From: Amphiscolops sp. MND2022
Taxonomy: Eukaryota
NCBI GenBank assembly: GCA_964187785.1
Contig: OZ076409.1
Span: 50,656,001 to 50,720,000, forward strand
DNA: 64,000 nt
Direction of reading: 5' to 3'
The notes under the pieces were generated by a model. That model made no database searches. It was not told the origin of the DNA and saw nothing but the letters and a program-made list of their open reading frames with translations. The position numbers were made by a program, and so were the translations under genes. The first letter of the stretch is position 1. Each line of letters begins with the position of its first letter. Positions 8,929 through 64,000 of the stretch are shown in pieces.

Positions 8929-9422
8929 GTAGCCTAAAGTGTCACACAAGGGTAATTTCTACTTTTTGCAACATCTTTCGAACAAAAATGTACTATTTCG
9001 GGTTATTGTGGTATTTTCAGTCATTAAAAACACTCAAAAAGGCACTGACATTACCATAATTCATGAAATTTCGTTTTGTGGGACATCAATTGAATAAATC
9101 AGGTCATATTTGTAAAAATACCGGATAGCGCTTCCCTTCTCCTCTCAGGATTCAATTGTTTTGCGAAATAGTTCTTTGAGAGTAGTTTTGTCCCAATTTG
9201 GATATAACCATTCTGTTGTTCATTCAAGGAACCCAATATTTTGATTCCAAATCTGTTCGAGAACTCTCAGTTGTTAGCATTTAAATTCTTATTTAAAATT
9301 AGTCTCCATCGTAAGCTGGGAAGCTGGCAAACTGAGAGACTCTTACCATGATATTCTGGCAAACTGCCTGTTTTAGTCTCTACTCATGCTTCTCTTGTTT
9401 TACTACTTTTCGGAACACAGCC

Positions 9423-9504
9423 AGCTGATTTTAGATCCCGAAAACGTCAGTTAGCATGCTACTGGTAGCATGCTCAATGAAGTTTTCTGGATCTAAAATC
9501 AGCT
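9423..9504. repeat. Imperfect palindrome / hairpin
   Basis: AGCTGATTTTAGATCC...AGCATGCTAC-TG-GTAGCATGCT...GGATCTAAAATCAGCT. Confidence 0.8.
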
Positions 9505-11764
9505 TGTTGACTTCCGACGTCACCATCAGACATCAGGTTTCAAAATCTTGCAAAATTTTTAGGATACTGCGAGAACTTAATTCACAATGAAAGATCCACG
9601 TACTTCAAGGTTCTTCCTAGAGTGTCAGCAAGTATATGAGAAAATAGAAATTGGGAAGCACCTAAACCAATTGGGGCCCATGGAAAAATTGTAGCACTCA
9701 TTTTACTTGTTCGCGATAATTTTTTTTGTCTCCCGAATTGATGAAATTCGCTACCTCTAAAAGGAATTGTTTGCAGGTACTCAAAAAAATTTGGTTAAGC
9801 TTTCCAATAAATTTTTCATTATCGCAATCTGCAAAATTGCAATTGCACAAATAGGAGAAACTGGCGAAAAATTTCGCAATTGTTTCTCCATCAACATACC
9901 TAACCGAAAAGGAGTGCTATAAATTTTTAACAGAAATTACATATTCAATTGGGATTACTTTATGATTTCACATGAAAATCTCCCGATTATAGGAAGCGAA
10001 TTTATGCTAGTTTGAATTCCATTCACGGAAAACTTTTCCTTTTGATGAAAATGTGGGAAAATACGTTCTTCTCAGTCTCATGGGAGAAGGTGGGATCCCC
10101 TGTTTGAATTGCTAGAACTTTTCGTACGTTCCTTAAAGGTTCCACCAGCTTTTAGTATCATTTTCTAAATTTCTTACGGAAACTTTCATGCAAACAGTTT
10201 TCTGTTCTGTTCGACTTTAAAGAAGCTGCTTGAAAGAAGCATCCTAAATTTGGCGGCACATTTAAGCCTTGAAGTTTTGCAAAATCCAATAAAAAGCGGT
10301 TCCATTTTTGAATGCATCTAAGATTCCATCATTTTCACCACTATTTTAATGCGAAATGACTTCATTCATAAAGTAAACAGCAAACAGCGTCATCTTGAGC
10401 AAGCTAATTGAGAAGCGGTAATCGCATCAGATGAAGTAGTTAAGAAATCAAAGCGGGAATACAACATGATTGTGGCCGTAACGAAGAGGGAAATATTTTC
10501 ATTTCACTTTGAATACTGGAAATTGCCGTGTAATTCTGTTCAAGATTTAACCTAAAGATTTAACACCAGAAGCTAACTGATTGTTTTAGATTCTATAGAA
10601 AATTACCCTGCATGCAGTCAGCAGCAAGTACAAAGCAAAGTTCTAAAGTTCTAGCAGTCTCGACTAGGGAAGATAATTACTATAAAAACAACTTTTTCAG
10701 ATACCAATAGTTTGTTCCAGTCGGAAAATTTTAGAGTAATCAATCATTTCTCACTACATTATTAGAAAAACACAATTCTATGTTGTTCGCAAAGGCAAAG
10801 GCTTGCGGTTTTTGGGGTGATGGAATGACAGTGAAAGTAATCAATTCTCCATTTGACTTTTCAATAATTAGCCCTTATTTTACTTTGATATCAAATTTTT
10901 TATTCCGAGAAAGTAACTAACTCTCACCAATAATATGTTAGGAGCAAGCTGCAAACAAATCTGATTTCAAACGTTAGATAGTTCACAAACACTGGATGCT
11001 GAATCTATAATGTGTCAATTCTTGTTCATTCTCACACGTTTTTCCTGACTTTAGACTTTAGTTGAAATTGCTCCAATACTTTGCATGAACTTTATTGTTG
11101 CCTACTACTTTTAGTAGGGTTTTCTTAAACTGTTTCGGAAAATTTTGGGTGAAAAAATGTCCCTGTTGTATTCAACTTTTACCAAGCTGTTTGAAAGAGT
11201 CATCTCTTTATCGCGCCAATTTTAAGCATTTGCAGTTTTGCAGGCTTCACTAAGAAACAGTTCTAATTTTAAATGCAACTGTTGTTACCCATTTTATCGC
11301 CATTTTAATTATTATCAGGCGCGTATCCCAAAAATATGCATGCAATGTTTTCGTGCCAATCCACAACTAGTCAGCTTTTTAAAATGCTTAGTCCACTTAG
11401 TTACCAGAAAGACAAAATTGAGACCAGATGCGATTGAAAAATTGAGTAAATCATCGTTATTGCAACCCAAATTGACAGAAGAGATGTCATAAATATAAAT
11501 TTCTATCTCGAGGTAAATTGATTTGAAGCAGAATTGAGCTTAGATAAAAGTTATGACAACCTTATTTTTTAGGCTGGGTAGGTATAAATAAACTGGGAAC
11601 GACATGAATTGGCCGTGCCCAAGGCTCAAAATTATCTAACAGGGATATGGTTTGAAGGGGGATGAACATATTATGGGGGGATGAAAATCATAACTTGTGG
11701 TTCGTTTTTTTCCAAATTCAGCCAAATCTCCACTTTATTACACCATTTAATAAGTAAATTCTAG

Positions 11765-13421: not shown

Positions 13422-14021
13422 TCAACAAAAGCACGTGTCATGAACGTTATGATTAGATATTCCACCCCTTTGGCGTACATCATGTCGTTCATTCCTGCAG
13501 TTAGTCCTAGCGTTCGAGTTGCGCTGTTCTTCGGCATCCGTTTCCGGTCTCTCAGCCGGGACTTCCCATCCTCTTCTAGTCTCATGGACCGATCCGGCCA
13601 TCATGGCGTTTTGAATTTGAGGCAACACTTGACTATTTATAGCCTCATTGATGGCCCTTTGGATCTGTGAACTAACATTATTAAGCATATCGTCCATCTC
13701 TCTCGAGATCCTAGAATTTAATTCGCTTGACAACCTGTTTATCTCTGCAAGTGAGTTTGCTTCAGCTGAGTTTTGGCCCAAGTCGGCGCTTGTCCTGGGT
13801 TCATTGTTCCTACAATTAGAATATAGGCTTTCGTCCTCATTCTCTTGGTTGTCGCTTACAACACTATTCCTCCTCCTAGCTGAATTACTATCTAAACTCC
13901 TTTCTCTTTCAATCCCGTTAAAGTGATTGTTTCCTAGCATTATATCTAGGTTTTCAATATCCGAAAGGATCTCTAATCCTCTAGACTTTCTAGTCTTCTT
14001 CTGCTTTCTCGTTGTAGGCAT
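13422..14021 (-). CDS. Copy of Gag N-terminal 195 aa carried in the 3' LTR, ending in flanking DNA
   Basis: Identical to residues 1-195 of ORF 26806..28515, followed by TCFC* from host flank. Expression unknown. Confidence 0.5.
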   Translation of the reverse strand: MPTTRKQKKTRKSRGLEILSDIENLDIMLGNNHFNGIERERSLDSNSARRRNSVVSDNQENEDESLYSNCRNNEPRTSADLGQNSAEANSLAEINRLSSELNSRISREMDDMLNNVSSQIQRAINEAINSQVLPQIQNAMMAGSVHETRRGWEVPAERPETDAEEQRNSNARTNCRNERHDVRQRGGISNHNVHDTCFC

Positions 14022-15360
14022 TGAGACTAAACCGGGTTGAAGAATTAAATTAATCAGGTCCGGAAAACAGTAATTGTTAACAGATTGTTATCAAGTTGAT
14101 TGTGAGGAGCTTTTCGAAATTGTGTCTACTCAAAGGAAGTAGCTCCTATATATACTCCCTTGGGTGGGAAAAGCATGGTAGTAACTTTAAAAAATGTCAT
14201 AACTACATTCCTAAAGCACCTGATCAGATCATATACATTCAAACATCAAAGTGCCGCTGAATTGTAGTAGCAAGGTCACGCGGCCGTTTAAATTCCTGCT
14301 TTGATAGGATTGAGAGGCATTCAAATAGCACGCGTTACTTCAAACAACATCTACTATAATATTTGCACTGCTGGTATTTGGGGAATGTCAGCTATCCCGT
14401 GCCGGCACGTGCCCCAGTAGTAAGCTAAACAAACTTACATCAAATAACGTTACATGCATAATACATCTACAAATTGCATGTGTTAATTGACAAATGAGAC
14501 CGGACTGGTCTTTCGGGCAAGTATTTGAAGCACCAACACACAACTGGTGTTAATCATATCAACCGATCTGGAGGACTACATAACTGTTTGTAACACACTC
14601 ATTACTGTACATGTCATTTAGAATGCACAAAACAATCATATTGACCATCTGAGTAATAAATTGAATGGGTGGCCTAAATCGGCCATTATCCGGATAGGTA
14701 TAGCATCAGGGGAGGGAAATTAGGCAAATGGCCTTATTTGGCTAAGCATCAGGGGAAATGAAACAAAACACTAATTATCCAACGTGATCATTTAACAAAC
14801 ACAGAAACGTAATTAAGCTACTTATTAATACAGTATAGCAGCGTCCACATCATTATCTTTTCATTAGCAACTTATGGCCGAAACCGGCCGTTTGACTCAA
14901 GTCCCGTTTAACAAAGGCGGAATTCAGTCATGTGGCCTTAACCGGCCATTAATTAAATACAGCACAAGTATTGTTCAAATGGATGAATGTGATTGGTTAG
15001 CACGACTGCAGTAAGTTATATCGCCGAGAAGGGACGTTTTCGCACTTGAACACGTTTCCTTCTCGCGATTAACTTGCTCTCTTATTGTTTGCTATAGCAT
15101 CAATACAACTTCGCAATTTAATTCAGCTATTACAACAACGAACTGATTTGGCTAATCCCAAATCGTAATATTAACAGACTAATTTGAACATCCAATATAA
15201 GTGATCAAATAAAATAAATACAAACAAAATACATGATGTAAACGGTTTCTAAAGTTTTAGCAGTTTTATTCTTAAAAAGTTGGCAGTGTTCCGGGTATGA
15301 CTTCTTGGTTGTTGCTTGTTGTCGTAATCATAGTGCCGTCACAGGCGGCAGCCTGCGACA
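13436..15360 (-). repeat. 3' LTR (1925 bp)
   Basis: Direct repeat of 27930..29854. No differences seen in spot checks, and ORF-track translations in the two copies match. Confidence 0.96.
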
Positions 15361-16057
15361 CTGCGGGTGTAAGGAAAAGAAACGAACCTGCATTCAACCC
15401 GTTTTCGTAGGCTTCCCTTCTCAGCTTTGTTATGAATTCTGGCTCATCTCTCGGTGTAGATCTGTCCATGTACCAATCCACTCGCTGTTTCTTGATCGCA
15501 TCTACTGAGCGGCCACAGACCATACATCCGGTATAACGTGTTTCGCTCACATTCTCGTACGGCTTCGTGTTTTGAATGTGATATGACGCCCTGAATGCAG
15601 AGTCAGCTACTACTAGCGGGGTATCCATAGACGGTCCTCTCTCGTGAGGGGGCGGTGATAGAGGTGACTCCACGACAGGAAGTAGAGTTTTGCAGAGCTC
15701 TATCCGAGATTTCCCTATCTTCCTCGGGGGAGCATAACACATTTCTCTATCAAAATATTTGTGATCCAACTTCGGGGTCACGCCCATCTGCGTCTGCCTG
15801 GAACTTGGGCCAGCTTCTGTATCTTCTTCTTCTTCTTCGGGTAATTCTACAGTCATAATGCGGCCCCCTATTAGCATGGGGCTGGATATTACCTCTTTCT
15901 CGATCCTGGCCACCAGTTGTTCCGTATCAGTGGAATAGTCGGTTTCCCAATCCGAGGCTTCGCTCTCACTACTAGATATGTAGATGACAGATTCGTTAGA
16001 TTCGTCAGAATCATAATCCATGTCGAATAATTTCCTTGCCAGGTTGTACTTGCTCAT
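15272..16057 (-). CDS. Accessory sense ORF of unknown function (261 aa) overlapping the 3' LTR
   Basis: ATG start, acidic/Ser-rich N-terminus, CMVC motif. Last 89 nt lie in the LTR. AATAAA directly after the stop (15265..15270). C-terminal peptide conserved in the diverged LTR at 63368. Confidence 0.75.
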   Translation of the reverse strand: MSKYNLARKLFDMDYDSDESNESVIYISSSESEASDWETDYSTDTEQLVARIEKEVISSPMLIGGRIMTVELPEEEEEDTEAGPSSRQTQMGVTPKLDHKYFDREMCYAPPRKIGKSRIELCKTLLPVVESPLSPPPHERGPSMDTPLVVADSAFRASYHIQNTKPYENVSETRYTGCMVCGRSVDAIKKQRVDWYMDRSTPRDEPEFITKLRREAYENGLNAGSFLFLTPAVSQAAACDGTMITTTSNNQEVIPGTLPTF

Positions 16058-17133
16058 AATGAGTTTTTTAGCTATTTTGAAGCTTGGGGAGGCAACTAGT
16101 CAGAATCAAAGCTTGAGAAAGAATGAATTCAACAAATTTGAGAATTTAGCCGACTCGGGCCTTTTCCCGACAATTCGTTTTTGGCGGTTGAATCTTCGGT
16201 AAATTACCCTAATCCGACATAAACATTCCTGAATGGAATTTCATAATTAGTCGGCCACCTTTGATATACCGATGTTTACCCGTCATCAACACCATCAGCT
16301 TAAGAGGTGTGAACGACGCTTGAGCTGCTAGCCTCAATTCTCTCCATCTCAAGTGGGTAATTAACGGGTCGCTTGAAGGCTATTAACGACACGCGCCGTT
16401 AAATTCTTTCAACATGGCTTCAGCCAATCAGAGTTAAGCTCTGATAAAATGAAAAATTAAGTAATAAAATGGCGAAAATAATAAATCAAAATAATTCAAA
16501 ATGGCGGAAATAACAATTTGAGTAACTATAATAACGGAAGTCCTAATTAGGCTAACAAACAAAACGGAACGAGGTAATACAGTGAAATGGGGTAAACGGC
16601 CGTAATTGGCCAATAATTCCATGAGTTGTAAATAATGAAATGATCTTAGTACATTTCGCTGGCAGACTCCATGTACAGAATAAATATGTAAATAATCCCA
16701 TAATATTAGTCTGGTAATAATCTTCAGCCACGAACTCCAATCCTTCAATTCTTTATTTTGAATTCCAATTCAATTCCTTTTATTTTAATTGCACTTTCTC
16801 TTCCATATTCATTCGATCGGTCTCCATCTACAAACTACCCTTTCTGTCTCTAATCTCTCCCGTCAGTCATCTCTTCCGAGTATCCCTGTTTCTCCCTTTA
16901 AGCTGGGTCCGGCCAATTTCCTTCGCGGCAGCAACCCGATTGGAACACTTCCCTTTTAGTCTCAGCTCAGAATGTCTTCAACTGAAGGTTGGTTTGTTTC
17001 TTTTTGAACTCAAATTTAACTTGATCAGGGCTAAATTCGTTCACAAAATGCTTCCTGTTTTCATCAATAAACGTGTGATAACACGTTTCGTTCAAATTTT
17101 CAAACACTTCCGGAAGTTTTCTAATGCGGTAAA

Positions 17134-20100
17134 ATGGATTTTTTCCAAGGAAGCTCACCGCCAAATTTCATCTCATTCTGTTTAGAAAACCAGAATAATG
17201 ACGAATCACAGATTCGAAACACCACTTCTTCAAACAATCTTGCCGAAGTTCCTCAACGCCCGCTCCCGATTACCATGCCAAGGCCTAGATCCGATCTAAT
17301 TGCTCCGTCTTCTCTACCTTCATCCAACATCCTTGCTATGTCAACAGCAGCGGTAACAGGAGGAGCCCAAGATACAGCCACTCCCTCTCCTTTCAGTGTC
17401 GACAGTGATTTTGATGTCACGGCGTACGCTGATGAGAAAGTTTTGCTTCTCGAACGGGCCCAGGGACAGGAAGAGAGACAAATTGCCAAAAGTTCTGAAC
17501 TCGGGGAACAGGAGGTTGAAGAGAGTGTCCCAGAAGGTTCACTCACGGTTGGGAACGAAATCCGATCTTCTACCTTGCCCTTCCAAACAAGCACTCCAAC
17601 CAAAGATTTGCCCAGTGAGTCTGCAAGGCTGGATTTATCGCAACTAGAAGCCGGTCTCACAGTTGCTCCATCTACCCAGACGGAATTGCCAGAATTGTTG
17701 ACAACTCGCGGAAATACTACCAACATGTCAGCAGCATCATTCCTCCACCATGAGACTGACGAAAGTTCGTCTATATGTGATGCCCCCAAATTGCCGACTG
17801 GAGTCGCGGACATAGTATATTTAGACGACATAACAGGGACTGAGGAAGCTGGTGACACATCCAGTCAGGCAAGTGGACCAGCTCTATACAGTTTCCAACC
17901 AGTGGGAGGCGCAGCAGAAACTGCAGGGGAGTCATCAGTTGACACTCCTATTCCTCATCCGGATAACTTGCGTCCGTCAACATCAACGTCTGCAGAGCAA
18001 GGTTCTGGCATCAGGGAGCTCTCTGGTCGCAGCCGGGCTATTTTAAAACAATACTTCGATCAGGATGCTACTACCATCAACTTCCCCCTTGGCCATAGAA
18101 CGGTGGCTTTCACTGAGCCGCAAGTGTACCATCTTTTGAGGGTCCTTACAGATGAAACCTTGAAGATGTCTTTCACTGCCATGGAACAGATGGTGATCGG
18201 GGCAGTTCGTGGAGCGCCGGTTACTTCCAGTTCTCGAACTGGTCATTTCCGAAACAGGCCAAGAGCCCAAACTCCCGGACCTGGACTTCATAGTGATTCC
18301 GAGGGCAGTTCGCATTCTGAAAATTTCCCTGAGTCAGGAACTGATACGTCTGCCGGGTCAAGTTCGGAACAAGAAGATAGAGGACTGGACTCTTCCAACA
18401 ACACTGATAGCTCTGGGGAGATGGCTCTAATTTCACAGGCTTTTAAGGAGCCTTTCAGACCTGCTTCAACTTCCTGTGGGACTACTCAAGATGATCCCCC
18501 TCAAGCAGGTTTCGAATCAGCAGATCAGTCTAGTCTTGATGCTACCCTTTCCGAGTTACGAACTCAAACTTCTCCTGCTCCGCCCTTAGCTTCGAGTTCG
18601 GGTAAAGCGCCAAAACGTAAGCAACGGAAACAGACTCGAGGTGTCCCTATGAAAGAGGAGTTCTTCTCTAAAATCGGATGGACACGCTCGTTCATTTCTG
18701 GACCAGCAGACCCGCTCCATAATCCTTATATGGTATGGTGCCATATATGTAAAAAGAATCTTTCTGTGAAGACGAAGGGCACTTTGGAAATTCTGCGGCA
18801 CCACAGGACGGAGAAGCACCCCCGAAAAGATCAAAGATGGCGTTACGAGCACCTCAAGAGTGTTCACCCCGTGTCCGGAAAGGTGCAACATCGAGTGAGA
18901 GGCCGCAATGGGAAGATTCTCTCAGAGATTGAGTTGGCCAAGGAGATGCGCCACTTTATGCACGTTGAGTTGGTGGACATCGGAGAACGTTTCCCTTTCT
19001 ATGACGATTTCATAAAAGGAACAACCACCACACTCGTCACCCCTGAATCAAGAGCTAAGACACAGATCCAACTTATTGGGAACTTCATACAGCAGCACGG
19101 GGATATTGGAATGCTCCGCAAATTGTGGTCCCAAATAGGCTCTTTGACTAACTATCAGTCCAGCTACTGTGACTTCGATTGGGGTGAAGAAAGAATTTCG
19201 GTAAGTTCTCTATTGGGTTTGTACACTGCTTGTGGTAGGCCAAAACCTTCCAAACATTTCGTAATTCTCCTTTTCCTTTTCAGGCCATCTTCCAGCACAT
19301 CTTCAATTGTGCAATGAACGATTTAGCAAACCAGATTGCTACCACACAGCACTTTGCCATCGAATTTGAGGATCAGGGTGTGAACAGACTCATGTCTGTC
19401 AAATTCTGGAAAGACAACACCCTCTGCCGAGTCTACGTGTGTCGAAGTGGGCTTCCTTCCTCTGACCTTACTGGAGAGTTGGGGTCCCTCTCTCGACTCC
19501 TCTCAGTAGTATCCACTAAAGCCGATATAGTCGCCTGTTCCGGATGTCCTGTCGAGCTGATTCAGACTATCGACAACAATGTTTTCTTCCCCCGGGCTGT
19601 CCAGAGTTGCTTTCGCTTCGAGCATCTGCAGCTCCAGAAGATGATGCACAAGCCCACTTTCAGTGTGTTTGGCAGAATAGACTTCTTCTCTGTTCTGAAG
19701 TGCCTCGTAGTTTCACTTGGAGCAGCTTCCAGTGAGGATTGGGCCCTGCAATCCCCTGAACTGGCACGAGTTAGTATATTAAGTTCAAACATGAAGCGTA
19801 AAGGGTTAGGGGGTAGGTTCGGGCAAAAGACAATTCGGGTTCATTTAGGCTATCGATACCTGCAAACTGGACTTGCCGAGTTTACCCAACCTCTGTCGGG
19901 AACTTGTAAAACATTGGAAGGCGATCCGGCAGTACCTGACGTCCCATACTCCACACCAGGGAATGCAGGGGGTCCACAATCAAGTGCAGAGCTTCGAGTG
20001 GTCTCTCATCTGCGACTCCTTCTTCACCGTCAAGTTGGAGTTCTTCCAACGCATAATCAGTGATTGTGAGTATACCGCTACATATCCATATTGGTACTAT

Positions 20101-21378
20101 AAGACATTATCAGAATGATCCTTGATCCTTGATTCCTCGGGCCACTAGCGCAGTAGGCATATCGGTATGGGTTTATGTAGACGTTTTGTTCTTTTCATGG
20201 TCTTGTCCTTTGTATTTCCAGATGTCGCCAGTTTCGTTGTCAATCTGTTGGGCCGACGAGATGCAACATTTTTCCTCTGTGGAGAAGTCTGCCGATTCAT
20301 CTCCAAGTTATGTGCCAGATGTTACTTGCCGGAAACCATCCCTCTCGAGAATTCGTGGTTCCTGCTCCTCAATTTCAACGTGAGCGACGGGAAGTTCATC
20401 AGCGAGGAGGAGTTCCTTGTCCGACACCGGCTGACAACTCGGATAGCTACTGCCAGCAAACAGTGTGCCGATGTTGTCCATTTGAACAAGAAATCGGAGA
20501 AAGCCGCCATTGAGAAGACAGCTGCAGAGACAACCAGCAGTTTCGTCAAAGAAGGACTGCAGTTTATTCAGTACTTGGTCAAGCAGGTCCTCAACCAAGC
20601 CGGTCTGAGCTCCGAGGTGATCAAGGGGTTGGCCGCCTTTGATCCTTCCGTCCTCTTCAAGAGGCCGAGTGAGGTCGGACTTCGTCATTTCGAGGTATTG
20701 TACTCGACCTTCCAGCTTCGCTCCTGGGTCTCCGGTGAGAATGAGAACATCTGTCGAGATGAGTATTTGGCTTTGTTAGATCACCTGCGAGTCAATTATC
20801 CTCCAGATTTCGATTTCAATGAAAATTCCCCCGACCTGATAGACTTTCTGATGCAACTCGAGTTTTTTCAAACTCATGAGCACATTTTCCATCTTTTCAA
20901 GCTGTGCTGCTTGTGTTTGACAGAACGAAGTCTCCAATATCCCCCAGTATCTTTCGGGAGTGTTAACACTTCTGGACACCGAGGCCGTTTTGCTGACCTT
21001 ATAGAGCCCTGTCAGAGTTACCTTTCTTGCGTGCCTGACTCCATTCTACATTGTTGTTCTGACGCTAATTTAGAAAAGCTTTCAGCCCTCAGTTCTTCCT
21101 TCGAGCGTTCCGCTTTCTCCCCCGACTATGATCCATGGACCTTTGTGGATGAGTTCGGGAGGTCCAAAATTTACAAGAGCCTTCTTGCCTCCTATAAGGT
21201 CGTCACTGCTGTTTCTCCCCCTCGGGCTGTTCATCTGGCGACAGGAATTGCCTCCTCCGTGCCGGACGATTCTGCCGTAAAGGTGCCCTCCAAGAAGCAA
21301 AGGAAGCGAGCAGGTAGCAGCAGTTCTACAATTTCGTCCACTTCCAAGAAGGCTGTTCAAGGGTCCTCTAAAGACTAA
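17134..21378 (+). CDS. Antisense four-exon accessory gene (~1308 aa): disordered N-terminus, BED/hAT-type zinc finger, decayed hAT-transposase-like region
   Basis: Exons 17134..19200, 19284..19769, 19849..20065, 20222..21378. Introns GTAAGT..TTTTCAG, GTTAGT..CATTTAG and GTGAGT..TTTCCAG (phases 0, 0, 1) join four ORFs into one 3927-nt frame. Motif VWCHICKKNLSVKTKGTLEILRHHRTEKH. Confidence 0.85.
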
Positions 21379-21610
21379 ATGTACATATGTATTTATGTAC
21401 TTTCAGACTGTAAACTTTGTTCATTTCTCTGTTTCATATTTATTTTCATTTTGTTCTCTGTTGTCTTGATTTTCTGATCCCGTATTTATTTCCTTGTAAG
21501 GGATCATTCAAATGTCCCATTATTTATTCAAGAAATACTGCTGCATGGGACCGAAAAGATAAAAAGAATGAAAAGAAGAGAATTCCCATTTTCGGGAAGA
21601 AATTCAATTC

Positions 21611-24600
21611 TTAGTATCTGAAGTCTTCTGAGTAGTTTGGATTTGGATTAGGCCTGAGATTATATTTCCCTCCTCTAGGGCTCAGACTTTCATTTCTAGC
21701 ATCTTTTTCAGATATTTCGGGCACGATAATATAATCCCCTCTTTTCGGAGAATTTTGTGCATCGTTGTCATTCGATGAATTTCTTTCTGGAGAATTTTCA
21801 TTCCCGTTTGGTCCATTTGCCATATCCGGCAAAGATTTTTCTTGGGTTTTTGGGGAAACGGCCGGATTCGGCCAATCAAATTCTTCGTTTCTAATAGCTC
21901 CAGTAGCTTCATTTCTTTTAGTGACGTCATCATTTAAGCGGTCATTCCGGCTGTGTGCCGTATTGTCATTATTCGTTTCTCGCGTGATTATATAATCCGC
22001 GTCACTCTCGTTTGCGTCATTGTTGATTTGTTCCGTACTCGGCTGTTCGCCGTTCGGTGAGTTGGCCGGAATAGGCTCGCTGCCTCGTGTGTCTATCTGT
22101 TCACCAAAGTTTGTTTCCCACGTTATTACATACAAGTCGTCTTGCGGAATGATTATTTCGTCATCCGGCTGTAGACGCTGTTCTCGGAAATTGTCCTCAA
22201 GTGGCTGATTTGGAACAAACTTTTTGAGACGAATTCGATGCAATATCTGCGTTTTATTTGTATTAAGCCTGCGGACAATGTAATTCTCGTTAGGTAAGGT
22301 CTTCTGGACTATAAATGGTCCAACCCAACGATAATCTTTGAATGGAATTTTTGATCCTTGATGATCCGCTTTCGGCTGTAATACAAAACAGTAATCGCCC
22401 TCTTTGAGTGGGGCGGCTTTTGCTTTTCGGTCATAATACTCCTTATATTTGATATATGACTGCATGATGTTCTGCTTAGTTTTGTCAATAAGGAGTTTTG
22501 TCCGGTTTTGGATTTCTTCTGCGAATTCAGTAGTCGGATGGATTTGCTCGTTTGGATTTGTTCCAAGCTTATGATCCAAGATGTTGTATGGGATTCTTCC
22601 ATGGAACACTCTTGTCGGTTCACATCCGATACTGGCATGGTAACTAGTATTGTGATTCAGAACTGCTAATGGCAAATATTTGTGCCATTGTCGGCGATAT
22701 TCTCCACATGCCATTTTCAAGTTTGTTTTCAATGAGGCATGTGTGCGCTCCAATTTCCCGATAGTTTGCGGGTGCTTTGTCGTTGCACATTTTAGGGTGA
22801 TTCCTAAAATTTGGGTAATTTCTGCAATAATCGTGGAAGTGAAGGCAGTTCCTTTGTCTGTAATGAGCGTTGTCGGTAAGTAGGAATGTTTGGTCATAAT
22901 GTCAATGAGTGCTTTGGCTACATTGATCGCTGATGCGTCCGTGAGAGGGTAAGCGAATAAATATCTAGAGAAAACATCAATTGCCGTTAGGACATTTTCA
23001 TACCCTCCGCTTGGGGGAAGATTCGGCAATAGGTCAATTTGCATGGCGTCTTCAGGTCCAAGGTCCCATTCGGGCAAATTTAGTAGTTCAGGCGTGATCG
23101 TTGCATTAGGGACTCTTTTGTCTCTGGCGCATTGCTCACACCCTTCTACCCACTTTTTGACATGTTTTGCCATGTTGGGATAATAATACCTTTGTCTGAT
23201 TTCCTGCAACATTTTTGAAATCCCGGGATGTTTATGCGCTGTCCCGTGAAGGGAGTGGAGCAGTTCCCGAAGTAGGTGTTGCGGGAGCAAAATTTGATGG
23301 TATTTAACATTCCCTGTTTCATCAAAATATTGCCGTGTTAGGATTTCGTCCTTTAGTACAATTCGTTCCAGATTATTTGCATAGTGTCTATATCGAGCGT
23401 CCTGTTGCAGTATGTTTTCTGAGTAGTCTTCGTGAAGGAGTTTTGCCTTCAATTGTTGTAATACTGCATCCTTGGATTGCTCGATAATTATCTGGTTTGT
23501 TTTCCTCAATCGGTCTTGTATTTCAGGTTGTTGTTTGGTTAAGTTGGTGGAAAGAGTTTGTATTGTAACTGTAGGGTCTTCGATTACAGGATTGTTCCTG
23601 ATTGCTTCTTTCCTCGCCCAATATTGTTCTTCGGTCTCGTCGTCGTCATTGGTGTAGAAGATTTGTTCTTCCTGTGAGACTCCTGCTGATTGGACGTTTA
23701 TTTCTATTGGTAGCGTTTGTACATCTTCTCGGATTTTCATTACTAATTTGTCCTTTGGGTCTGCTTCCAGTCGGGACAAGTAATCCGCTGCCGTATTCTG
23801 TGCTCCTGGGATGTGTGCAATGACAAAATTGAACTGAATTACATAGTCGCATGCGTTCCACAGAGCTGGGGGTACGATTTTCGTCTGAAAGAATCTCGTT
23901 ACGGCTTTGTTGTCGGTTAGAATTATGACCGGTTTCGGTGCTCCCCAAAAAATATGCCCAAATTCTTTGAATGCGAAATAAATCGCACGAAATTCTTTTG
24001 CATAAATTGACATTTTTATCTGGGCTGGGGTGAAGGTTTTTGAACCATAAGCGACCGGTGCATATGATTTGCGGATTGACGTGAATTTCTGACTCGGATC
24101 ATCTTCAATGAGTACTGCGTATCCTGCAGCTCCAAAGCTTGCATCTGTCATGAGTGCAATCTGCTTGTTGGGAATGGGTTGTTGTAAGGCTAAGTCGCAA
24201 CATTTGTCCAGAGCTCGGTTGATTTCCTCAAATTGCTGTACCAATTCTTTTGATACTAGGACTTTTTCGTCACTTTTCAGCATCTTGTAGAATGGGGCAA
24301 GGCGTTCGGACAGTCTTGGAACGTAGTTTCGGTAGTAGTTCAGGAAACCCAAATATCTTTGCAATGCCTTTTTCGACTTTGGAAATTTGGTTTTTTCTAG
24401 AAAATTCTGAACGTTCTGTCGTTGAGGTTTGACGCCTTGTGGAGTAATCGTTCGTCCAAGGAAATCAATTTCACGGGCACCAAAATGACACTTGTGCATC
24501 GTCAATTTAAGGCCTGCTTTCTGAATGCATTTGAAAGTTGCTCTTAGGTTAGCAATGAGATGGTCGGCGTCGTTGGCGGCGATGCCGATATCGTCCACAT

Positions 24601-26815
24601 ACTGGGCGCACTGATCCGCTTTGATGACTTTGTCGAGGTATTCCCTCATGAAACTCGAGAATGCGGATAGTGACCGGCTAAGGCCTTGTGCCAAGCGTCT
24701 GTAGGCGAATGTGCGACTGGCAAAATTGAAAGCCAACATTTCGATTGAGCGTTGGTCGGCCATTGGTAGGCAGTGGTATGCCTGCGAACAGTCTAATTTG
24801 CAGAACAGTTTTTTGCCTGCCAGGTGTTGGGCAGCATCAACTAGTGTGCTGACAGGATGATTATTGTTTATATAATCATCAGAAATCAGGTTGTTGATTT
24901 TTCTCAGGTCGACTAAAAGTCGCAGTTTCCCATTTGGTTTCTTTTGGGCGAATATTGGGCTTGCATACTTTGAGAACGGTAGAGTGGTGATGATGCCATA
25001 TTTGTGTAACATGGCTAATTCGACGAGGATGTCCTCCTTTAGATTGATAGGAGCTGGGAGACTTTGACTATAGGCTGGGGAATCGTCCTTAGGCGTCAGT
25101 TTCACCTTAAATTCCTCATTCATGCCTATATCGAATCGGTGTCTTGCGAAGATATCGTGGAATTCCACTAACAGTTCCTCTATTTTCTCCTTCTCTTCAG
25201 GAGTAAGGGTGGAATCTTTCCAATCGAAGTTTTCCAAGAATTTTGCACGTGATTCTTCATCTTTGGTGGGGTCGAGTGTCTCCAGTTCCTGTAAGGCCTG
25301 TAATTCTCGGAGGATTCGTTTCTGTATCGGTGTGTGTTCCTCAGGGTTTCCAGGATTTTCTGGAGTTGGGAACCAATAGTTTTCAGAATCTTGTAGATTT
25401 TTGTTGGTCTTGATGAGACTGCTGACGTAATGGGCCGCCTGCTCTTGGTCGTTTTGCAAAAGATGCCAGGTTGATGCCGGGTCTACCGGTTTAACATGTT
25501 TCATTTGTTCTGGCGTCATGACTGAGAAATTGGCAATATGGAGTCCCTTTTTGAGTTTGTAAGGGTGGTCTGTGAAATTGTTCACTGGTATCAATATATT
25601 GCCCTCATTCAGAGTGACCAAAGCTGGGCAAAATGTGATGTCGCCTTCTTCGTGTAGGAGGTCGCTCGGTTGCAAGATTCCGGTGACAGCATTCTCAGGG
25701 TACAACAGGGAATTGGTCCTAATTAGGACTTTATCATTTGGCGGAATGGTTATCTCGGTAGGGTTGAGAATTGGTTCTAACACGTTTGAGTATTTGTGAT
25801 CAGCTGTTTTGAGCTGCATTGAGAAGAACGGGAAATTCAGTATGCCTTGTCTCATGTCCAGAACTGTGTGGTTTCGTTGAAGGAACATTAGGCCGATAAT
25901 CGGACCTGTCAGGTGTTCCATGACTATAAAAATCTCATGAAACTCAATGTCGCCAACTTCAAATTTAAGTTCTATTGTGCTTTTGGGCGTTTCCAGTTGC
26001 CCATTAGCGACCATGATTTGGAAATTCGGAGGCGGACCTTCCCGGATAACAGATTGTGGAGATAAGAGTCGAATTTTCCGGAGGTCCATTTCTGGAATTG
26101 CACTGGACAATGCTCCAGTGTCAATGAGTCCATCTATGGTCAGCTCCCCAAAGTCCATGGGGAAGTACAACATGCGCTTCTTGCATTTGAGATTGATGTT
26201 GGTCGACAAGGGTATACAGTCTGGTTCACCGTCTCTGGTGATTAGGACGTTCTGGAATTGCTTCTCGTCTAATAGTGATTGTGGTGTAGGTTCGGAGTTG
26301 TCCTCATGGGCCTCGGTCCCCAATGGGTTCGGGAACACTGGGTGGTTCGTACCATCATTCATCTGCCAGTTTTCAACTAGTGCTCTGGTCTTTTTATTGT
26401 GGGTAATTGGAGGGTTCTCATGGACTGTTCTATTGTAGTGCTCGATGTCATCTAGGACATATTGGAATTGTAGTAGTTCCTGGTTGTAGATCTCTGTGTC
26501 CCAATAGGGATCTCTGCCGTAATCTGGATCTATGTAGGTAGGATTGTAATTGTCAACCAGGGGAATGGGCCTGAATCGGCTATTGAAAGCAGATGTATAG
26601 TCAGGGTCCCATACAGGAATTGGTTTTTGGAACAAATGAGTGTTATTGTATGTAATGATGGTAGCTTTTTCCATTTGTTGCTGCCAGACAACAGAGGGAT
26701 AGCCCATCAATTGTTGATTGTATTGGTGGAAAGTTTGCGTTGGAGGGTCCGATCTGATGTATTGTCGGACAGATATCAGTTCGTTGTATTGGAGTCGTGG
26801 CGAAGTTAGTTTTTT
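21611..26815 (-). CDS. pol: Pol polyprotein: protease, dUTPase-like segment, RT, RNase H, integrase
   Basis: LIDTGA (protease); QYVDD (RT); TDAS..E..TDN..ADYLSR (RNase H); H-H-CEQC zinc finger; IDL / TDKG / LER (DDE); VGPF motif. Frame is open up to 26818 and overlaps the end of gag in the -1 frame. Confidence 0.96.
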   Translation of the reverse strand, partial: KKLTSPRLQYNELISVRQYIRSDPPTQTFHQYNQQLMGYPSVVWQQQMEKATIITYNNTHLFQKPIPVWDPDYTSAFNSRFRPIPLVDNYNPTYIDPDYGRDPYWDTEIYNQELLQFQYVLDDIEHYNRTVHENPPITHNKKTRALVENWQMNDGTNHPVFPNPLGTEAHEDNSEPTPQSLLDEKQFQNVLITRDGEPDCIPLSTNINLKCKKRMLYFPMDFGELTIDGLIDTGALSSAIPEMDLRKIRLLSPQSVIREGPPPNFQIMVANGQLETPKSTIELKFEVGDIEFHEIFIVMEHLTGPIIGLMFLQRNHTVLDMRQGILNFPFFSMQLKTADHKYSNVLEPILNPTEITIPPNDKVLIRTNSLLYPENAVTGILQPSDLLHEEGDITFCPALVTLNEGNILIPVNNFTDHPYKLKKGLHIANFSVMTPEQMKHVKPVDPASTWHLLQNDQEQAAHYVSSLIKTNKNLQDSENYWFPTPENPGNPEEHTPIQKRILRELQALQELETLDPTKDEESRAKFLENFDWKDSTLTPEEKEKIEELLVEFHDIFARHRFDIGMNEEFKVKLTPKDDSPAYSQSLPAPINLKEDILVELAMLHKYGIITTLPFSKYASPIFAQKKPNGKLRLLVDLRKINNLISDDYINNNHPVSTLVDAAQHLAGKKLFCKLDCSQAYHCLPMADQRSIEMLAFNFASRTFAYRRLAQGLSRSLSAFSSFMREYLDKVIKADQCAQYVDDIGIAANDADHLIANLRATFKCIQKAGLKLTMHKCHFGAREIDFLGRTITPQGVKPQRQNVQNFLEKTKFPKSKKALQRYLGFLNYYRNYVPRLSERLAPFYKMLKSDEKVLVSKELVQQFEEINRALDKCCDLALQQPIPNKQIALMTDASFGAAGYAVLIEDDPSQKFTSIRKSYAPVAYGSKTFTPAQIKMSIYAKEFRAIYFAFKEFGHIFWGAPKPVIILTDNKAVTRFFQTKIVPPALWNACDYVIQFNFVIAHIPGAQNTAADYLSRLEADPKDKLVMKIREDVQTLPIEINVQSAGVSQEEQIFYTNDDDETEEQYWARKEAIRNNPVIEDPTVTIQTLSTNLTKQQPEIQDRLRKTNQIIIEQSKDAVLQQLKAKLLHEDYSENILQQDARYRHYANNLERIVLKDEILTRQYFDETGNVKYHQILLPQHLLRELLHSLHGTAHKHPGISKMLQEIRQRYYYPNMAKHVKKWVEGCEQCARDKRVPNATITPELLNLPEWDLGPEDAMQIDLLPNLPPSGGYENVLTAIDVFSRYLFAYPLTDASAINVAKALIDIMTKHSYLPTTLITDKGTAFTSTIIAEITQILGITLKCATTKHPQTIGKLERTHASLKTNLKMACGEYRRQWHKYLPLAVLNHNTSYHASIGCEPTRVFHGRIPYNILDHKLGTNPNEQIHPTTEFAEEIQNRTKLLIDKTKQNIMQSYIKYKEYYDRKAKAAPLKEGDYCFVLQPKADHQGSKIPFKDYRWVGPFIVQKTLPNENYIVRRLNTNKTQILHRIRLKKFVPNQPLEDNFREQRLQPDDEIIIPQDDLYVITWETNFGEQIDTRGSEPIPANSPNGEQPSTEQINNDANESDADYIITRETNNDNTAHSRNDRLNDDVTKRNEATGAIRNEEFDWPNPAVSPKTQEKSLPDMANGPNGNENSPERNSSNDNDAQNSPKRGDYIIVPEISEKDARNESLSPRGGKYNLRPNPNPNYSEDFRY

Positions 26816-28515
26816 GACTCATCGTTGGAAGATGAGGCCTGTGAGTTGGAAGATGTTGACTTATGTTGTGGTTTCTGCGCTTTTGAATTGGGTTTTCCGT
26901 CATTAGCGTCGTCTGGTCTGGTGCGTTTGGGTTTGAGATGCGCACCAGCGCCTTGCCAGCATCTTTCTTCCGGGTGGTTCTTTTTACCACAAGTGCCACA
27001 CTCCGGATACGTCTTTTTCTGAGTCTGTTTGCCTTGTTGGGCATCTTTTTCCTTTTTCTTCTTCAACTTTTCGCAGTCCTTGACCATATGGCCCTTTTCC
27101 TTGCAATAGTTGCAGGTTATATCTGACATTTGCCCAGTAGTTAGAGGAGTCTTGGATTTTGTCGAGGAGGTCATTGTGGCCATTGGTAGGTCGTCTGATT
27201 CCTCTAGTGCATTGAGTTCTAATTCTCTCTCCAAATGAGCAACTATTTCGTCATAAGAGCCATTTTCGAGTCTGGCCATGTTGACAGACCGCTTCAGTTT
27301 TGGTGGCAGCTTTGCGTAGAGCAAGCTGTCAATCATTTTCTGGGCGTGATCCCCAAATGCTTTTTCTGCCCCTTGATTTAGTTCTTCAAGGAAATCTGGT
27401 AATTTCATCGTATTGGGATCAAAGACCAGGCGGTGCCATTTATGCTTGGCAGTCGCCTGTGATTCGGGCTTGACGTATTTTCGTCTGAAGATGATTAATA
27501 CGTCTTCTAAAGTTTGTCTGTTGCTGGAGCTGATGTTTCTGAAGGTTTGAAGAGCATTCTTTCTCAATAAAGAGTGGAAGTGATTGATCTTCATTTGCTC
27601 AGTCATCTCTGGCTGCATCTTGATCATCGTATGGAACAGGTCCTCAAACAGCTCGAATTTTTCACTCTTGCCATCAAAAGTCATTGTGTTTGAGTTGACC
27701 GGGCGTATAGTGAGTTGTTGGGCTGTCGGCCTATTCTGCATCGTTGTCAAGACGTCTGCCAATCGAGTAATAGGGTCGGTTTGGGCAGCCGGAGCATTTC
27801 TCTCTTGCGCTGGGATCGTCGTGTCAAGGTTGATGTCCTCATAGGACCTGTCGAGATGGTTTCTGGATGAGACTCGTCCCGTGAGAAACTCGGGAACTTG
27901 AGGTGGAGATTCGTTGTCTCCTGTCACCATGTCATGAACGTTATGATTAGATATTCCACCCCTTTGGCGTACATCATGTCGTTCATTCCTGCAGTTAGTC
28001 CTAGCGTTCGAGTTGCGCTGTTCTTCGGCATCCGTTTCCGGTCTCTCAGCCGGGACTTCCCATCCTCTTCTAGTCTCATGGACCGATCCGGCCATCATGG
28101 CGTTTTGAATTTGAGGCAACACTTGACTATTTATAGCCTCATTGATGGCCCTTTGGATCTGTGAACTAACATTATTAAGCATATCGTCCATCTCTCTCGA
28201 GATCCTAGAATTTAATTCGCTTGACAACCTGTTTATCTCTGCAAGTGAGTTTGCTTCAGCTGAGTTTTGGCCCAAGTCGGCGCTTGTCCTGGGTTCATTG
28301 TTCCTACAATTAGAATATAGGCTTTCGTCCTCATTCTCTTGGTTGTCGCTTACAACACTATTCCTCCTCCTAGCTGAATTACTATCTAAACTCCTTTCTC
28401 TTTCAATCCCGTTAAAGTGATTGTTTCCTAGCATTATATCTAGGTTTTCAATATCCGAAAGGATCTCTAATCCTCTAGACTTTCTAGTCTTCTTCTGCTT
28501 TCTCGTTGTAGGCAT
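26806..28515 (-). CDS. gag: Gag (569 aa) with two CCHC zinc knuckles, starting inside the 5' LTR
   Basis: CNYCKEKGHMVKDC and CGTCGKKNHPEERC. Capsid-like FDGKSEKFELFEDLF region. Confidence 0.93.
   Translation of the reverse strand: MPTTRKQKKTRKSRGLEILSDIENLDIMLGNNHFNGIERERSLDSNSARRRNSVVSDNQENEDESLYSNCRNNEPRTSADLGQNSAEANSLAEINRLSSELNSRISREMDDMLNNVSSQIQRAINEAINSQVLPQIQNAMMAGSVHETRRGWEVPAERPETDAEEQRNSNARTNCRNERHDVRQRGGISNHNVHDMVTGDNESPPQVPEFLTGRVSSRNHLDRSYEDINLDTTIPAQERNAPAAQTDPITRLADVLTTMQNRPTAQQLTIRPVNSNTMTFDGKSEKFELFEDLFHTMIKMQPEMTEQMKINHFHSLLRKNALQTFRNISSSNRQTLEDVLIIFRRKYVKPESQATAKHKWHRLVFDPNTMKLPDFLEELNQGAEKAFGDHAQKMIDSLLYAKLPPKLKRSVNMARLENGSYDEIVAHLERELELNALEESDDLPMATMTSSTKSKTPLTTGQMSDITCNYCKEKGHMVKDCEKLKKKKEKDAQQGKQTQKKTYPECGTCGKKNHPEERCWQGAGAHLKPKRTRPDDANDGKPNSKAQKPQHKSTSSNSQASSSNDESKN
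26809..26815 (-). promoter_or_regulatory. -1 ribosomal frameshift slippery heptamer A_AAA_AAC
   Basis: Minus strand reads TCA AAA AAC TAA at the gag stop. The pol frame GTC AAA AAA CTA is -1 relative to gag. Confidence 0.85.
27912..27929 (-). promoter_or_regulatory. Primer-binding site, tRNA identity uncertain
   Basis: TGGTGACAGGAGACAACG directly after the LTR-terminal CA. Confidence 0.7.
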
Positions 28516-29854
28516 TGAGACTAAACCGGGTTGAAGAATTAAATTAATCAGGTCCGGAAAACAGTAATTGTTAACAGATTGTTATCAAGTTGATTGTGAG
28601 GAGCTTTTCGAAATTGTGTCTACTCAAAGGAAGTAGCTCCTATATATACTCCCTTGGGTGGGAAAAGCATGGTAGTAACTTTAAAAAATGTCATAACTAC
28701 ATTCCTAAAGCACCTGATCAGATCATATACATTCAAACATCAAAGTGCCGCTGAATTGTAGTAGCAAGGTCACGCGGCCGTTTAAATTCCTGCTTTGATA
28801 GGATTGAGAGGCATTCAAATAGCACGCGTTACTTCAAACAACATCTACTATAATATTTGCACTGCTGGTATTTGGGGAATGTCAGCTATCCCGTGCCGGC
28901 ACGTGCCCCAGTAGTAAGCTAAACAAACTTACATCAAATAACGTTACATGCATAATACATCTACAAATTGCATGTGTTAATTGACAAATGAGACCGGACT
29001 GGTCTTTCGGGCAAGTATTTGAAGCACCAACACACAACTGGTGTTAATCATATCAACCGATCTGGAGGACTACATAACTGTTTGTAACACACTCATTACT
29101 GTACATGTCATTTAGAATGCACAAAACAATCATATTGACCATCTGAGTAATAAATTGAATGGGTGGCCTAAATCGGCCATTATCCGGATAGGTATAGCAT
29201 CAGGGGAGGGAAATTAGGCAAATGGCCTTATTTGGCTAAGCATCAGGGGAAATGAAACAAAACACTAATTATCCAACGTGATCATTTAACAAACACAGAA
29301 ACGTAATTAAGCTACTTATTAATACAGTATAGCAGCGTCCACATCATTATCTTTTCATTAGCAACTTATGGCCGAAACCGGCCGTTTGACTCAAGTCCCG
29401 TTTAACAAAGGCGGAATTCAGTCATGTGGCCTTAACCGGCCATTAATTAAATACAGCACAAGTATTGTTCAAATGGATGAATGTGATTGGTTAGCACGAC
29501 TGCAGTAAGTTATATCGCCGAGAAGGGACGTTTTCGCACTTGAACACGTTTCCTTCTCGCGATTAACTTGCTCTCTTATTGTTTGCTATAGCATCAATAC
29601 AACTTCGCAATTTAATTCAGCTATTACAACAACGAACTGATTTGGCTAATCCCAAATCGTAATATTAACAGACTAATTTGAACATCCAATATAAGTGATC
29701 AAATAAAATAAATACAAACAAAATACATGATGTAAACGGTTTCTAAAGTTTTAGCAGTTTTATTCTTAAAAAGTTGGCAGTGTTCCGGGTATGACTTCTT
29801 GGTTGTTGCTTGTTGTCGTAATCATAGTGCCGTCACAGGCGGCAGCCTGCGACA
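27930..29854 (-). repeat. 5' LTR (1925 bp)
   Basis: Minus strand reads TGTCGCAGG...CATGACA and is followed by the PBS. Confidence 0.96.
28641..28648 (-). promoter_or_regulatory. Putative LTR TATA box
   Basis: GGGAG-TATATATA-GGAG about 125 nt upstream of the gag ATG. Confidence 0.5.
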
Positions 29855-30915
29855 GCACGGTACATCCGAATTTTGGACGTTGACTCCGAAGTGATTTGCA
29901 TTATACTACGGAAGAAGCTGCAGCTTCTTGCTGACGATCGAAATTATTCACGACGATCGAAATTATTACGACGATCGAAATTATTACGACACATACGAAT
30001 TTCGTCATTATATCCGAAGTAAAATTCGGATTTTATTTATGTCTGCAAATTGGGGGAGACCAAATGGTCCCCACTTTAAGATTTTTCCTCAGTATGCGAC
30101 GTTTTTCAAACGATTATTTAATCAAAGTGCCCCTTTTGATTTTTAGGAGGAATAAAGCATTATGTGAGAATAGAGGGCCACGTTCGGTTTTTTCGGCACA
30201 ATGAGACTAACCGAAGATCTAAAAAAAGTTGGTGGAAAAATTTTCCCAATTTCTGGTTTTTGAGTAAAACACTTTCGAAGTTCAAAGAGCGGCTTCATTG
30301 ATTAGTTTCCGGTCCTGTGGAACGGACGAAAGTTTTCGGAGAAATTGTGGAAATGATTTACGGTATTTTACGGCTCTGTGAGATTTTCCTTCAAAATATA
30401 TTCATTCGGTCGAAGTTAAATGTTTTCGGCTCGAAAAAAAAAACGTTTTGCGAGCTTGAAGTTCCAAATTTGGCACAATAAGATTTTTTTCTAGGAAAAA
30501 ACGTTCCGAAAAAAATAAGTACCAGAAAAAGTTTTTTTTTGTTGTTTCCATTGGAGAAAAAGTAAAGTGGTTTTCGAGTTTTATGCGTATTCCTTCGGGT
30601 ATTTTACGGCACTGAGAAAGTGATAAACTTATAACAATGGTGTCCTTTGCATTTTTAAGAAACTTGGTTTTTGGAATTTTGAGCGGGGCCCGGCTTCTTT
30701 GTTCAAATCGCAACAGAGGAATTGTATTAAATGCAATTAGCTGAAAGTCTTATCCATGAGCAAGTCCCATGGTCATTGAACAAGACGAGATGAAATACTG
30801 AACTTCGGGACGTGATAATTTGGTCGGTAGCGTGAACGCCAGTGGTATAATGGGTATGCTGATCGAGGCCCAACTGGCCACTGTTTTTGCTTGTTTTCAT
30901 TCACATTCAAGTATT

Positions 30916-31080: not shown

Positions 31081-31264
31081 TATTCCTTATTCTAATATAT
31101 TCCTTATTCAGAACGATTATCGTCCAGTGAATTCTCATTTTTGTTCATTTGATTTGTATACTACATGATCACAAAGTAATTCAAGTTTTCAAATCAAATC
31201 ATTCACATTTGTTAGTTTTTCCTCTGAAACTCTTGGCAAGATTGCAACATTTTAAAAAAAAACA

Positions 31265-60272: not shown

Positions 60273-60418
60273 AAATAAAAATGTTCATGTTGTTACAGGC
60301 TCAAATTGGATCTCTCGAAAGGGAACACCAGTGCCACAAACGACGCACAAACCAGCCGACTTCATGCCCGAGGACATAACCCCCCCAGGAACCTCAGCAA
60401 CAAACTAAAGAAAACCCG

Positions 60419-60434
60419 AAGAGAGAGGGGGAAA
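60419..60434 (+). promoter_or_regulatory. Polypurine tract
   Basis: AAGAGAGAGGGGGAAA abutting the 3' LTR. Confidence 0.9.
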
Positions 60435-63367: not shown

Positions 63368-64000
63368 TGTCGCAGGCTCCGCCTGCGATGGGAACCAGTA
63401 CTCAATATCGTATAACTACCATCAGGCCTTGCCGAGGACAATTCCCCTAGATTGAATGGAAACCTGCCATTCACAAACTCAAAACTAAAGTTCCAATTTC
63501 ATTTTGTGCTAAAGGTGTTGCTGATGTTTTGATAGTAATCGGACAAAATGTCGAAATGAGTTCATTCCGACTAAAATTAGTGGTACTCGACTAGTGCTTT
63601 ACTGCTTTTGTAAAATTACACGTGTAATTGAACCATGCAGAGTTAAAATTGGACACCAAGGCGTGAGGCAAAAGAAACGTGTTCAAATGTTTTCTTGGCT
63701 GTCGCCGCAGACAGTGAGTCCAAATTATTAACAGCCAATTAGATGCGAGTATTTGTTACTATAATGCGCTGTTCTGTTTGTTTGTGCTCTCAATTAAAGA
63801 CCGTTTACGACCACTCAGCTAATTGGATTGTATTAAGAAGGCTAGTGAAGAGCTAGTTCCATTTTGGATTGACATAGAGGCGCTGTCTACAGTGGAGCAA
63901 AATATTGTCATGTACTTGATAAAAAGAGAACCCCCTTCTATTACCTCGCTAATACCAACCCTAAGATTCCTTGCGTGCAGTAGCAGTAACATTTTAAGAG
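63368..64000 (+). repeat. Diverged LTR (U3 end) related to the 1925-bp LTR
   Basis: Starts TGTCGCAGGCTCCGCCTGCGA versus TGTCGCAGGCTGCCGCCTGTGA. Encodes ACDGNQYSISYNYHQALPRTIP versus ACDGTMITTTSNNQEVIPGTLP. Further patchy match ~420 nt in (AATTAAAGACCGTTTACGACCAC versus AATTAATGGCCGGTTAAGGCCAC). Right end uncertain. Confidence 0.65.

Follow-up and report, generated by a model that had tools for sequence, protein, structure and literature searches.

The polypurine tract (PPT) is generally regarded, to our knowledge, as a component that all LTR retroelements possess, and annotation software uses it as a filter. Why the tract resists RNase H and yet is precisely cut has been called an open question (PMC3185511, PMC4439019). 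The best-cut motif of HIV-1 RNase H has C or G at position -5, C, G or U at -4, C or G at -2 and A or U at +1 (PMC5728404). For the primer cut of HIV-1 the G at -2 and the A at +1 matter, and cleavage of the U-tract at -17/-19 gives the primer 5′ end (PMC1802577). In several retroviruses, and in Ty1, the T-box that precedes the PPT is of importance too (PMC10085805). Known natural exceptions to the all-purine primer are single pyrimidines in HIV-2 and MPMV (PMC3185511).

Structures near the tract have been described as well. In Sireviruses and Ty1/copia elements a positioned stem–loop lies at the junction of PPT and 3′ LTR and has been proposed to guide RNase H (PMC2829016; PMC3601003), and a systematic search for PPT hairpins has been called for (PMC3601003). 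HIV and SIV have a conserved RNA helix by the RNase H site, for which pausing was proposed as a primer-processing step; the two papers disagree on its function (PMC4439019, PMC3616985). The fungal GalEa elements, which are Copia elements, form a whole clade without a canonical priming signal and carry a Conserved Hairpin Site at an LTR junction (PMC5445492).

Here we describe a Ty3/Gypsy element from Amphiscolops sp. MND2022 whose 3′ LTR follows a pyrimidine-rich sequence and opens with a hairpin. It resembles the retroviral PPT region in having a U-run 15–20 nt before the inferred cut and then a strong-pair box, in the G at -2 and the A (here A/U) at +1, and in the short spacer before TG (PMC1802577). 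The coding overlap of PPT and U3 known from HIV-1 nef recurs here with an open reading frame which we call ORF-X (PMC5893875). The HIV-1 PPT differs by its A-tract, which is lacking here, and by our box being mostly C. With Ty3 and Ty1 priming the element shares the Gypsy-type pol and the upstream T-box and would share short non-retroviral primers and the fit between RT and primer, whereas Ty3 has an all-purine primer and the available text describes no terminal U3 hairpin (PMC5371799, PMC10085805). In Sireviruses the arms flank the PPT, a strict purine octamer exposed in the loop (PMC2829016); here, in contrast, the stem begins with the first bases of U3 and lies within it, and no purine tract is left. 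The helices of HIV and SIV include an intact purine tract (PMC4439019, PMC3616985), and the GalEa hairpin concerns the minus-strand PBS, whereas here the PBS is normal and the hairpin is older than the loss (PMC5445492). In the literature searched, mainly the text of freely accessible articles, we found no account of a pyrimidine-majority junction in any natural LTR element, nor one of a terminal hairpin inside U3.

Results

The window, that is, the whole stretch of 64,000 nucleotides which was analysed (contig OZ076409.1, positions 50,656,001 to 50,720,000), carries on its minus strand a Ty3/Gypsy LTR retrotransposon of 16,419 bp (13436..29854). The 5′ LTR (27930..29854, minus strand) and the 3′ LTR (13436..15360, minus strand) are identical at 1925 of 1925 positions and end in TG..CA. 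A 5-bp target site duplication (TSD), CGTGC, flanks the element on both sides; together these features fix the LTR boundary independently. The pol gene (21611..26818, minus strand) encodes protease, RT, RNase H and integrase in the Gypsy order, which places the element within Ty3/Gypsy, and the best solved-structure matches of the RT include Ty3 RT and foamy RT. The gag gene (26806..28515, minus strand) starts within the 5′ LTR, 195 codons inside it (27930–28515), and its frame runs through the PBS (27918..27929, minus strand), 12 nt complementary to a host tRNA-Leu(CAG). At all 30 PBS loci looked at, the LTR end and the PBS encode x-M-V-T-G. Between pol and the 3′ LTR there are three antisense open frames of 730, 274 and 409 aa (17125..21378, plus strand) in which a BED-finger-like WCHIC motif is seen by eye; an outgroup family at 75% identity also has similar antisense frames. 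With its LTRs ending in TG..CA, TSD, pol order and tRNA PBS, the element is thus an ordinary Gypsy element in structure. Among the homologues listed, none is named.

The left ends are precise. An exact 5-bp TSD adjoins the TG in 11 of 14 elements, another has a one-base mismatch and two could not be resolved; no junction bases are left over between TSD and TG in the elements checked (n = 14).

The 14-mer of LTR end and PBS has 7527 matches across the host genome (G000), and given this number the tRNA-Leu-primed lineage may occupy a large part of the 1.07-Gb genome. A tandem array of tRNA-Leu-like 3′ ends with a spacing of about 296 bp (G000:C8, 35.59–35.64 Mb) accounts for most listed matches of a tRNA-Leu pattern with 895 hits, which shows strong amplification of the primer tRNA-Leu or of a repeat that descends from it. 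At G000:C1:47790865-47797073 and 32614830-32619977 the junction recurs in tandem with spacings of about 1.5 kb and 2.5 kb; these are LTR-derived arrays or tandem LTRs. The window further contains a long 22-bp tandem repeat with more than 70 copies (51650–53500) and short foldback repeats, MITE- or Helitron-like, with arms of 53–83 nt (30913–31083, 40709–40848 and 9410–9517).

The 3′ LTR begins at 15360 (minus strand) and is preceded, as the first-pass annotation had stated, by the pyrimidine-rich sequence TTCGTTTCTTTTCCTTACACCCGCAG/TGTCG (the slash marks the LTR boundary). The contrasting case named there is sound as well: an unrelated second element in the window (54810–60640) has a canonical PPT of 17 purines (60418..60434, plus strand) before its LTR at 60435, and no terminal stem. 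In the clade of our element no purine run adjoins the 3′ LTR. Of 69 distinct junctions of this PPT-less clade, 68 have no run of more than 2 purines in their final 20 nt; the longest such run is 8 in 30 of 38 sister-clade junctions. The junctions of all 30 nearest copies fetched (40 scored) end in CCCGCAG. Genome-wide pattern searches returned 1247 junctions of the PPT-less type CCNGCNG and 1148 junctions with at least 7 purines, a few of which may be host flanks, and the reversed-pattern controls for both searches gave no match.

In the RT tree, from which one frameshifted row was dropped and for which 5 of 26 elements gave no usable RT, the PPT-less elements group together in a single clade (7 rows, support 100/100) with RTs 95–98% identical to the window copy. 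Two sister clades, with RTs at 77–88% to the window copy, have junctions of the type AGGGGGAG/ with a tract of 7–8 purines. The supposition that most family copies might after all have a PPT here is contradicted by the 1247 junctions and the single RT clade; the absence is clade-wide. Among 30 more elements chosen by their PBS, both LTR starts were seen in 21. Their junctions include the canonical AAAAAGGGGGGGAA/ (RT at about 60%) as well as CCCCGGGGAG/, AGAGGGGCCC/, GAGCGGCCC/, GCCGAGGAC/ and AATGCAGGAC/, and two outgroup families fetched by RT have GCRGGAC/ and GCCGGGGAC/. Relatives' junctions read GGG/AC/TG and GGGGGG/AA/TG. Since both sister clades, and the most distant group too, have purine tracts, the loss is likely the derived state in the clade, with a root of the RT tree that is not firm (rooting on the second element is unreliable, branch 4.7). 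The nearest RT outgroup, the P0047 lineage, was not found in the host genome (best match 72%). A metagenome contig (L426, Ga0126343_10227676) shows a C-richer intermediate junction, CCCCCGGGAG/, with P-P-G codons; this metagenome record is a lineage member carrying ORF-X and the hairpin. The other metagenome match, L425, looks like a chance match.

Two further candidates were rejected. An upstream purine run as substitute PPT is not conserved. Base-pairing between junction and primer tRNA, as in the bipartite PBS of Ty3, looks best at this place among the local windows, yet 51–180 of 200 shuffled tRNAs do as well.

The first-pass annotation had no reading frame across the junction. ORF-X (15272..16057, minus strand; 261 aa from its ATG) crosses it and runs 29 codons into U3, and it is the codons of ORF-X that write the pyrimidine run. 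The U-rich run TTTCTTTTCCTT (15371..15382, minus strand) encodes F-L-F-L and lies at the position of the retroviral U-tract; the C/G box (A)CCCGC (15363..15368, minus strand) encodes T-P-A and lies where the sister clades have their G-tract; the AG dinucleotide (15361..15362, minus strand) is the inferred 2-nt spacer from the primer end to TG. This retained retroviral layout of U-tract, strong-pair box, 2-nt spacer and TG had likewise escaped the first-pass annotation. All 69 junctions have 5–9 T at -24 to -13, which the F-L-F codons also demand. The box codons are T/A-P-A in the PPT-less clade and P-G-G in the sisters. Thus, the junction is overprinted by ORF-X, and the G-tract of the sisters is replaced by C/G letters.

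ORF-X is conserved in the PPT-less clade and its sisters, with an invariant CxxC and VSQAxACD. It has an acidic N-terminus, a conserved SPxSPP, the CxxC and a Cys inside the LTR. Its 438 database homologues are unnamed in all 120 cases listed, there is no Pfam match, the best atlas score (0.78) is a lead only, and the fold model is unusable (mean pLDDT 42.5). An RKLF word near its start presumably recalls cyclin-docking motifs.

The stem–loop at the start of the LTR, also noticed at first, is real. LTR nucleotides 1–24 (15337..15360, minus strand; second copy at 29831–29854) form 10 pairs, 1–10 with 15–24, around the loop UGCC, with -16.9 kcal/mol as RNA, and also encode V-S-Q-A-A-A-C-D of ORF-X. 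Its stability is equalled by 2 of 100 shuffles and by none of 95 other LTR windows; the 121-nt region overall has no unusual structure (z -0.16). The hairpin pattern has 5181 matches in the host genome and its control none. Rfam covariance models gave no match in 14800–15800 at E up to 1.

The diverged LTR at 63368 does have the hairpin (63368..63390, plus strand; 3-nt loop), with 3 matches in the window against none in 100 shuffles. This decayed LTR is 78–88% identical to PGG-type LTRs and belongs to that sister clade. The exchange of a G-U for a G-C pair reported for it is present; being one-sided and synonymous, it says little by itself. About 70 bp away and head to head lies a second decayed LTR start of the lineage (63240–63295, minus strand), with an in-frame C-D-G-N-W-Y and, by eye, most of the hairpin 5′ arm missing.

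Conservation of pairing is seen at several depths. When position 8 of the hairpin is G, the partner is C throughout the 5181-match set and another base in 312 matches of a near-identical pattern. When it is A (422 matches), the partner among the first 100 listed, counted by hand, is mostly U (77) and otherwise C (22) or A (1); as codons, CAA goes with GCT in those 77. Both positions of this covarying pair 8–17 are silent. The stem shows a compensatory change from G-C to A-U, perhaps in one or two tree events only. A large part of a set of 1164 matches comes from a family group that carries a C-U mismatch. In the 75% outgroup the residues H-P-P-R replace Q-A-A-A, and pairs 8–17 and 9–16 are swapped along with them; the stem there continues past the junction into the primer box. 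Families at 58–73% RT identity have stems at the same place with other sequence and loop length. Covariation had been proposed as a check on the hairpin; a formal count on 8 sequences is not significant (44 of 500 shuffles), and the stems of the distant families are the stronger evidence.

A stem anchored at the LTR start ranks in the top 5% of local positions in 12 of 20 distant-family LTR starts found without the hairpin pattern and fails to do so in 8; all 23 main-clade starts pass, but most of these were found via the hairpin pattern. The arrangement of Sireviruses, with inverted repeats around the tract, is not what we see: the stem is inside U3, and the 75% outgroup is the one case in which it reaches past the junction. 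An anchored stem at U5 ends is present in 3 of 30, and a mirrored hairpin there was discarded on this count. An alternative minus-strand stem of CCYGC with the hairpin 5′ arm, noticed by eye and post hoc, has just 5 bp and was set aside.

The hairpin recurs in families down to 58% RT identity, some of them with a textbook PPT. It is therefore older than the PPT loss, and the initial description of a hairpin "instead" of a PPT does not hold, since PPT-bearing families have one too. Nor does stem strength track the loss, as several poor-tract families have weak stems (-5 to -9 kcal/mol). Stem defects of both the G-U and the A-C type occur, which do not decide between RNA and a DNA strand; the G-U pair in nearly all stems of the PPT-less clade favours RNA over minus-strand DNA, on few events. 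At LTR nucleotide 11 (15350, minus strand), the first loop base, T is found in 33 of 33 PPT-less representatives and T, G or A in the sisters.

Silent changes were counted on a tree built from upstream codons only, with 33 representatives of 65 sequences. There are 10–16 changes at upstream codons, 9 at Leu -6 and 12 at codon +8, 4–5 at codons -3 to -1, and 0–2 at the hairpin codons 0–5, where the third base of codon 0 is fixed by the search patterns and the remaining silent sites are free. The constraint extends from -8 to +17. Of the 33 representatives, 32 have A or T at -2 (upstream silent sites are about half A/T), all 33 have A or T at -8, and 32 have a pyrimidine at -5. Exceptions among the first 100 CCNGCNG junctions listed are three with a purine at -5 and one with C at -2. 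The C/G letters and the hairpin are thus selected at the nucleotide level, and insertions end exactly at TG. Because silent sites at the junction are constrained, the purine tract is replaced by a new selected signal rather than merely decayed. The objection that codon constraint alone conserves the hairpin fails for the same reason and because pairs are kept despite amino-acid change.

Of 44 junctions, counting that of the second element, 36 have the HIV-1 cut motif, which is that of another enzyme, at offset -2, and 5 others have it right at TG; at other positions its frequency is 7%. This score is to be read with the limits that P-A codons fix three of the four positions, any G-tract meets the motif and the rows are related. 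At the window junction the -2 G and +1 A (here A/T) of HIV-1 are retained, and the U-run sits where the HIV-1 U-tract is cut. In the RT, the PPT-less clade has 9 residues seen in no outgroup, 7 of these in the thumb–RNase H part; the sister clades have 3 and 4 such residues, and the numbers are small.

Discussion

The initial suggestion of non-canonical plus-strand priming or end definition keeps its basis in the clade-wide PPT loss and the hairpin conservation; its splice-acceptor and "instead" parts are to be given up. We consider it probable that priming takes place at the same site from a purine-poor primer. The fuller model, in which the plus strand is primed at the ancestral site from a C/G-ended RNA with the hairpin as landmark for the cut, has in our judgement an even chance of being right. 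That the hairpin takes part in same-site priming seems to us just short of evenly balanced. We regard it as doubtful, and put it forward tentatively, that the hairpin rather than purines sets the end of a pyrimidine-majority primer and that this old hairpin let the PPT erode several times.

We suggest that priming could proceed in the following steps. The U-rich run would serve as U-tract and set the primer 5′ end. RNase H would leave an RNA piece from the U-run to the C/G box, cutting before the A/T at -2. It would read strong pairs at -5, -4 and -2 and A/U at +1, not purines as such, and G-to-C swaps might be tolerated because of this. The hairpin that opens the LTR is the predicted structural landmark for the cut and the best candidate for extra specificity. 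Finally, integrase would trim the 2-nt spacer before TG. The older hairpin, perhaps together with changes in RT thumb and RNase H, could have given the specificity that allowed the purines to erode. Some points count against this model. The G at -4 needed by HIV-1 is C here, and the model explains neither the invariant U11 of the loop nor the A/T at -8. It has also been argued that a primer working within an RNA/DNA hybrid is unlikely to be modulated by RNA structure (PMC3616985), which speaks against a role of the hairpin.

The same site might also be used by sequence fit alone, through a co-evolved RNase H and C/G box, with the hairpin having another job: binding of integrase or Gag, RNA 3′-end handling, protection of displaced plus-strand strong-stop DNA, or a palindromic site for a putative antisense hAT-like protein. 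This is possible, if rather unlikely. It would suit a hairpin that predates the loss and stands by canonical PPTs, the stem defects of both polarities, the co-evolution of PPT and RT in HIV-1 and Ty3 (PMC3185511, PMC5371799) and the 9 clade-only RT residues, 7 in thumb–RNase H, against 3 and 4 in the sisters. However, stems of varying sequence and loop length all begin at a constant distance from the junction, a pattern more in keeping with a structure than with a protein site, and in the 75% outgroup the stem reaches over the junction into the primer box. The U5 ends, with a stem in 3 of 30, argue against a symmetric integrase signal, and a pairing between primer tRNA and junction is rejected.

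If, alternatively, plus strands started from RNA fragments upstream or at scattered sites, integrase would have to set the left end by a cut at CA within a longer overhang, guided by a hairpin extruded in DNA. The junction without purine tract, the CA cut site at the stem foot on the minus strand and an 11-purine run ending 51 nt upstream in the window copy fit such a scheme, but the upstream purine run is at most 6 nt in 21 of 69 clade junctions, and the constrained silent sites at -2, -5 and -8 are not needed by scattered priming. Moreover, no junction bases remain between TSD and TG, and retroviral integration is impaired by ends that are a few bp too long (PMC5893875). We therefore hold such starts to be unlikely.

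Very unlikely, in our view, is that the pyrimidine run with CAG is a splice acceptor, as the first-pass annotation had hinted, and that a spliced RNA, with a purine-rich exon brought up to U3, donates plus-strand strong-stop DNA in trans. The window junction is acceptor-like and Leu codon -6 is pyrimidine-biased; against this, an invariant AG is not found, for junctions also end in GCTG (7 of 30 clade clusters, after 8 of 75 sequences with stops or shifts were dropped), GGAC or GCCC, with a final C in the outgroups. As in-frame F-L-F codons, the run is subject to purifying selection (pS 0.81, pN 0.22 over the 40 codons before the junction in 8 representatives), and none of 69 other LTR flanks matches the interior of the window element. 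That codon constraint of ORF-X and conservation of integrase ends explain everything, without any nucleotide-level signal, is scarcely credible: junction and hairpin do lie within conserved codons and integrase specificity spans the terminal 8–15 bp (PMC3601003), but silent sites are constrained from -8 to +17, amino acids change while stem pairs stay, and distant families have stems of quite different sequence.

A single genome offers a natural series of canonical tract, short G-tracts, broken tracts and C-rich box with one shared hairpin, and this series spans RTs that are 58–98% identical. With it one can test directly whether the primer is defined by purines, by strong pairs or by a structure next to it. 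The lineage further shows that an element may lack a PPT and still be abundant and young, so that PPT-based filters may misjudge such elements. If the proposed role of the hairpin is true, structure-directed RNase H cleavage can stand in for a polypurine tract.
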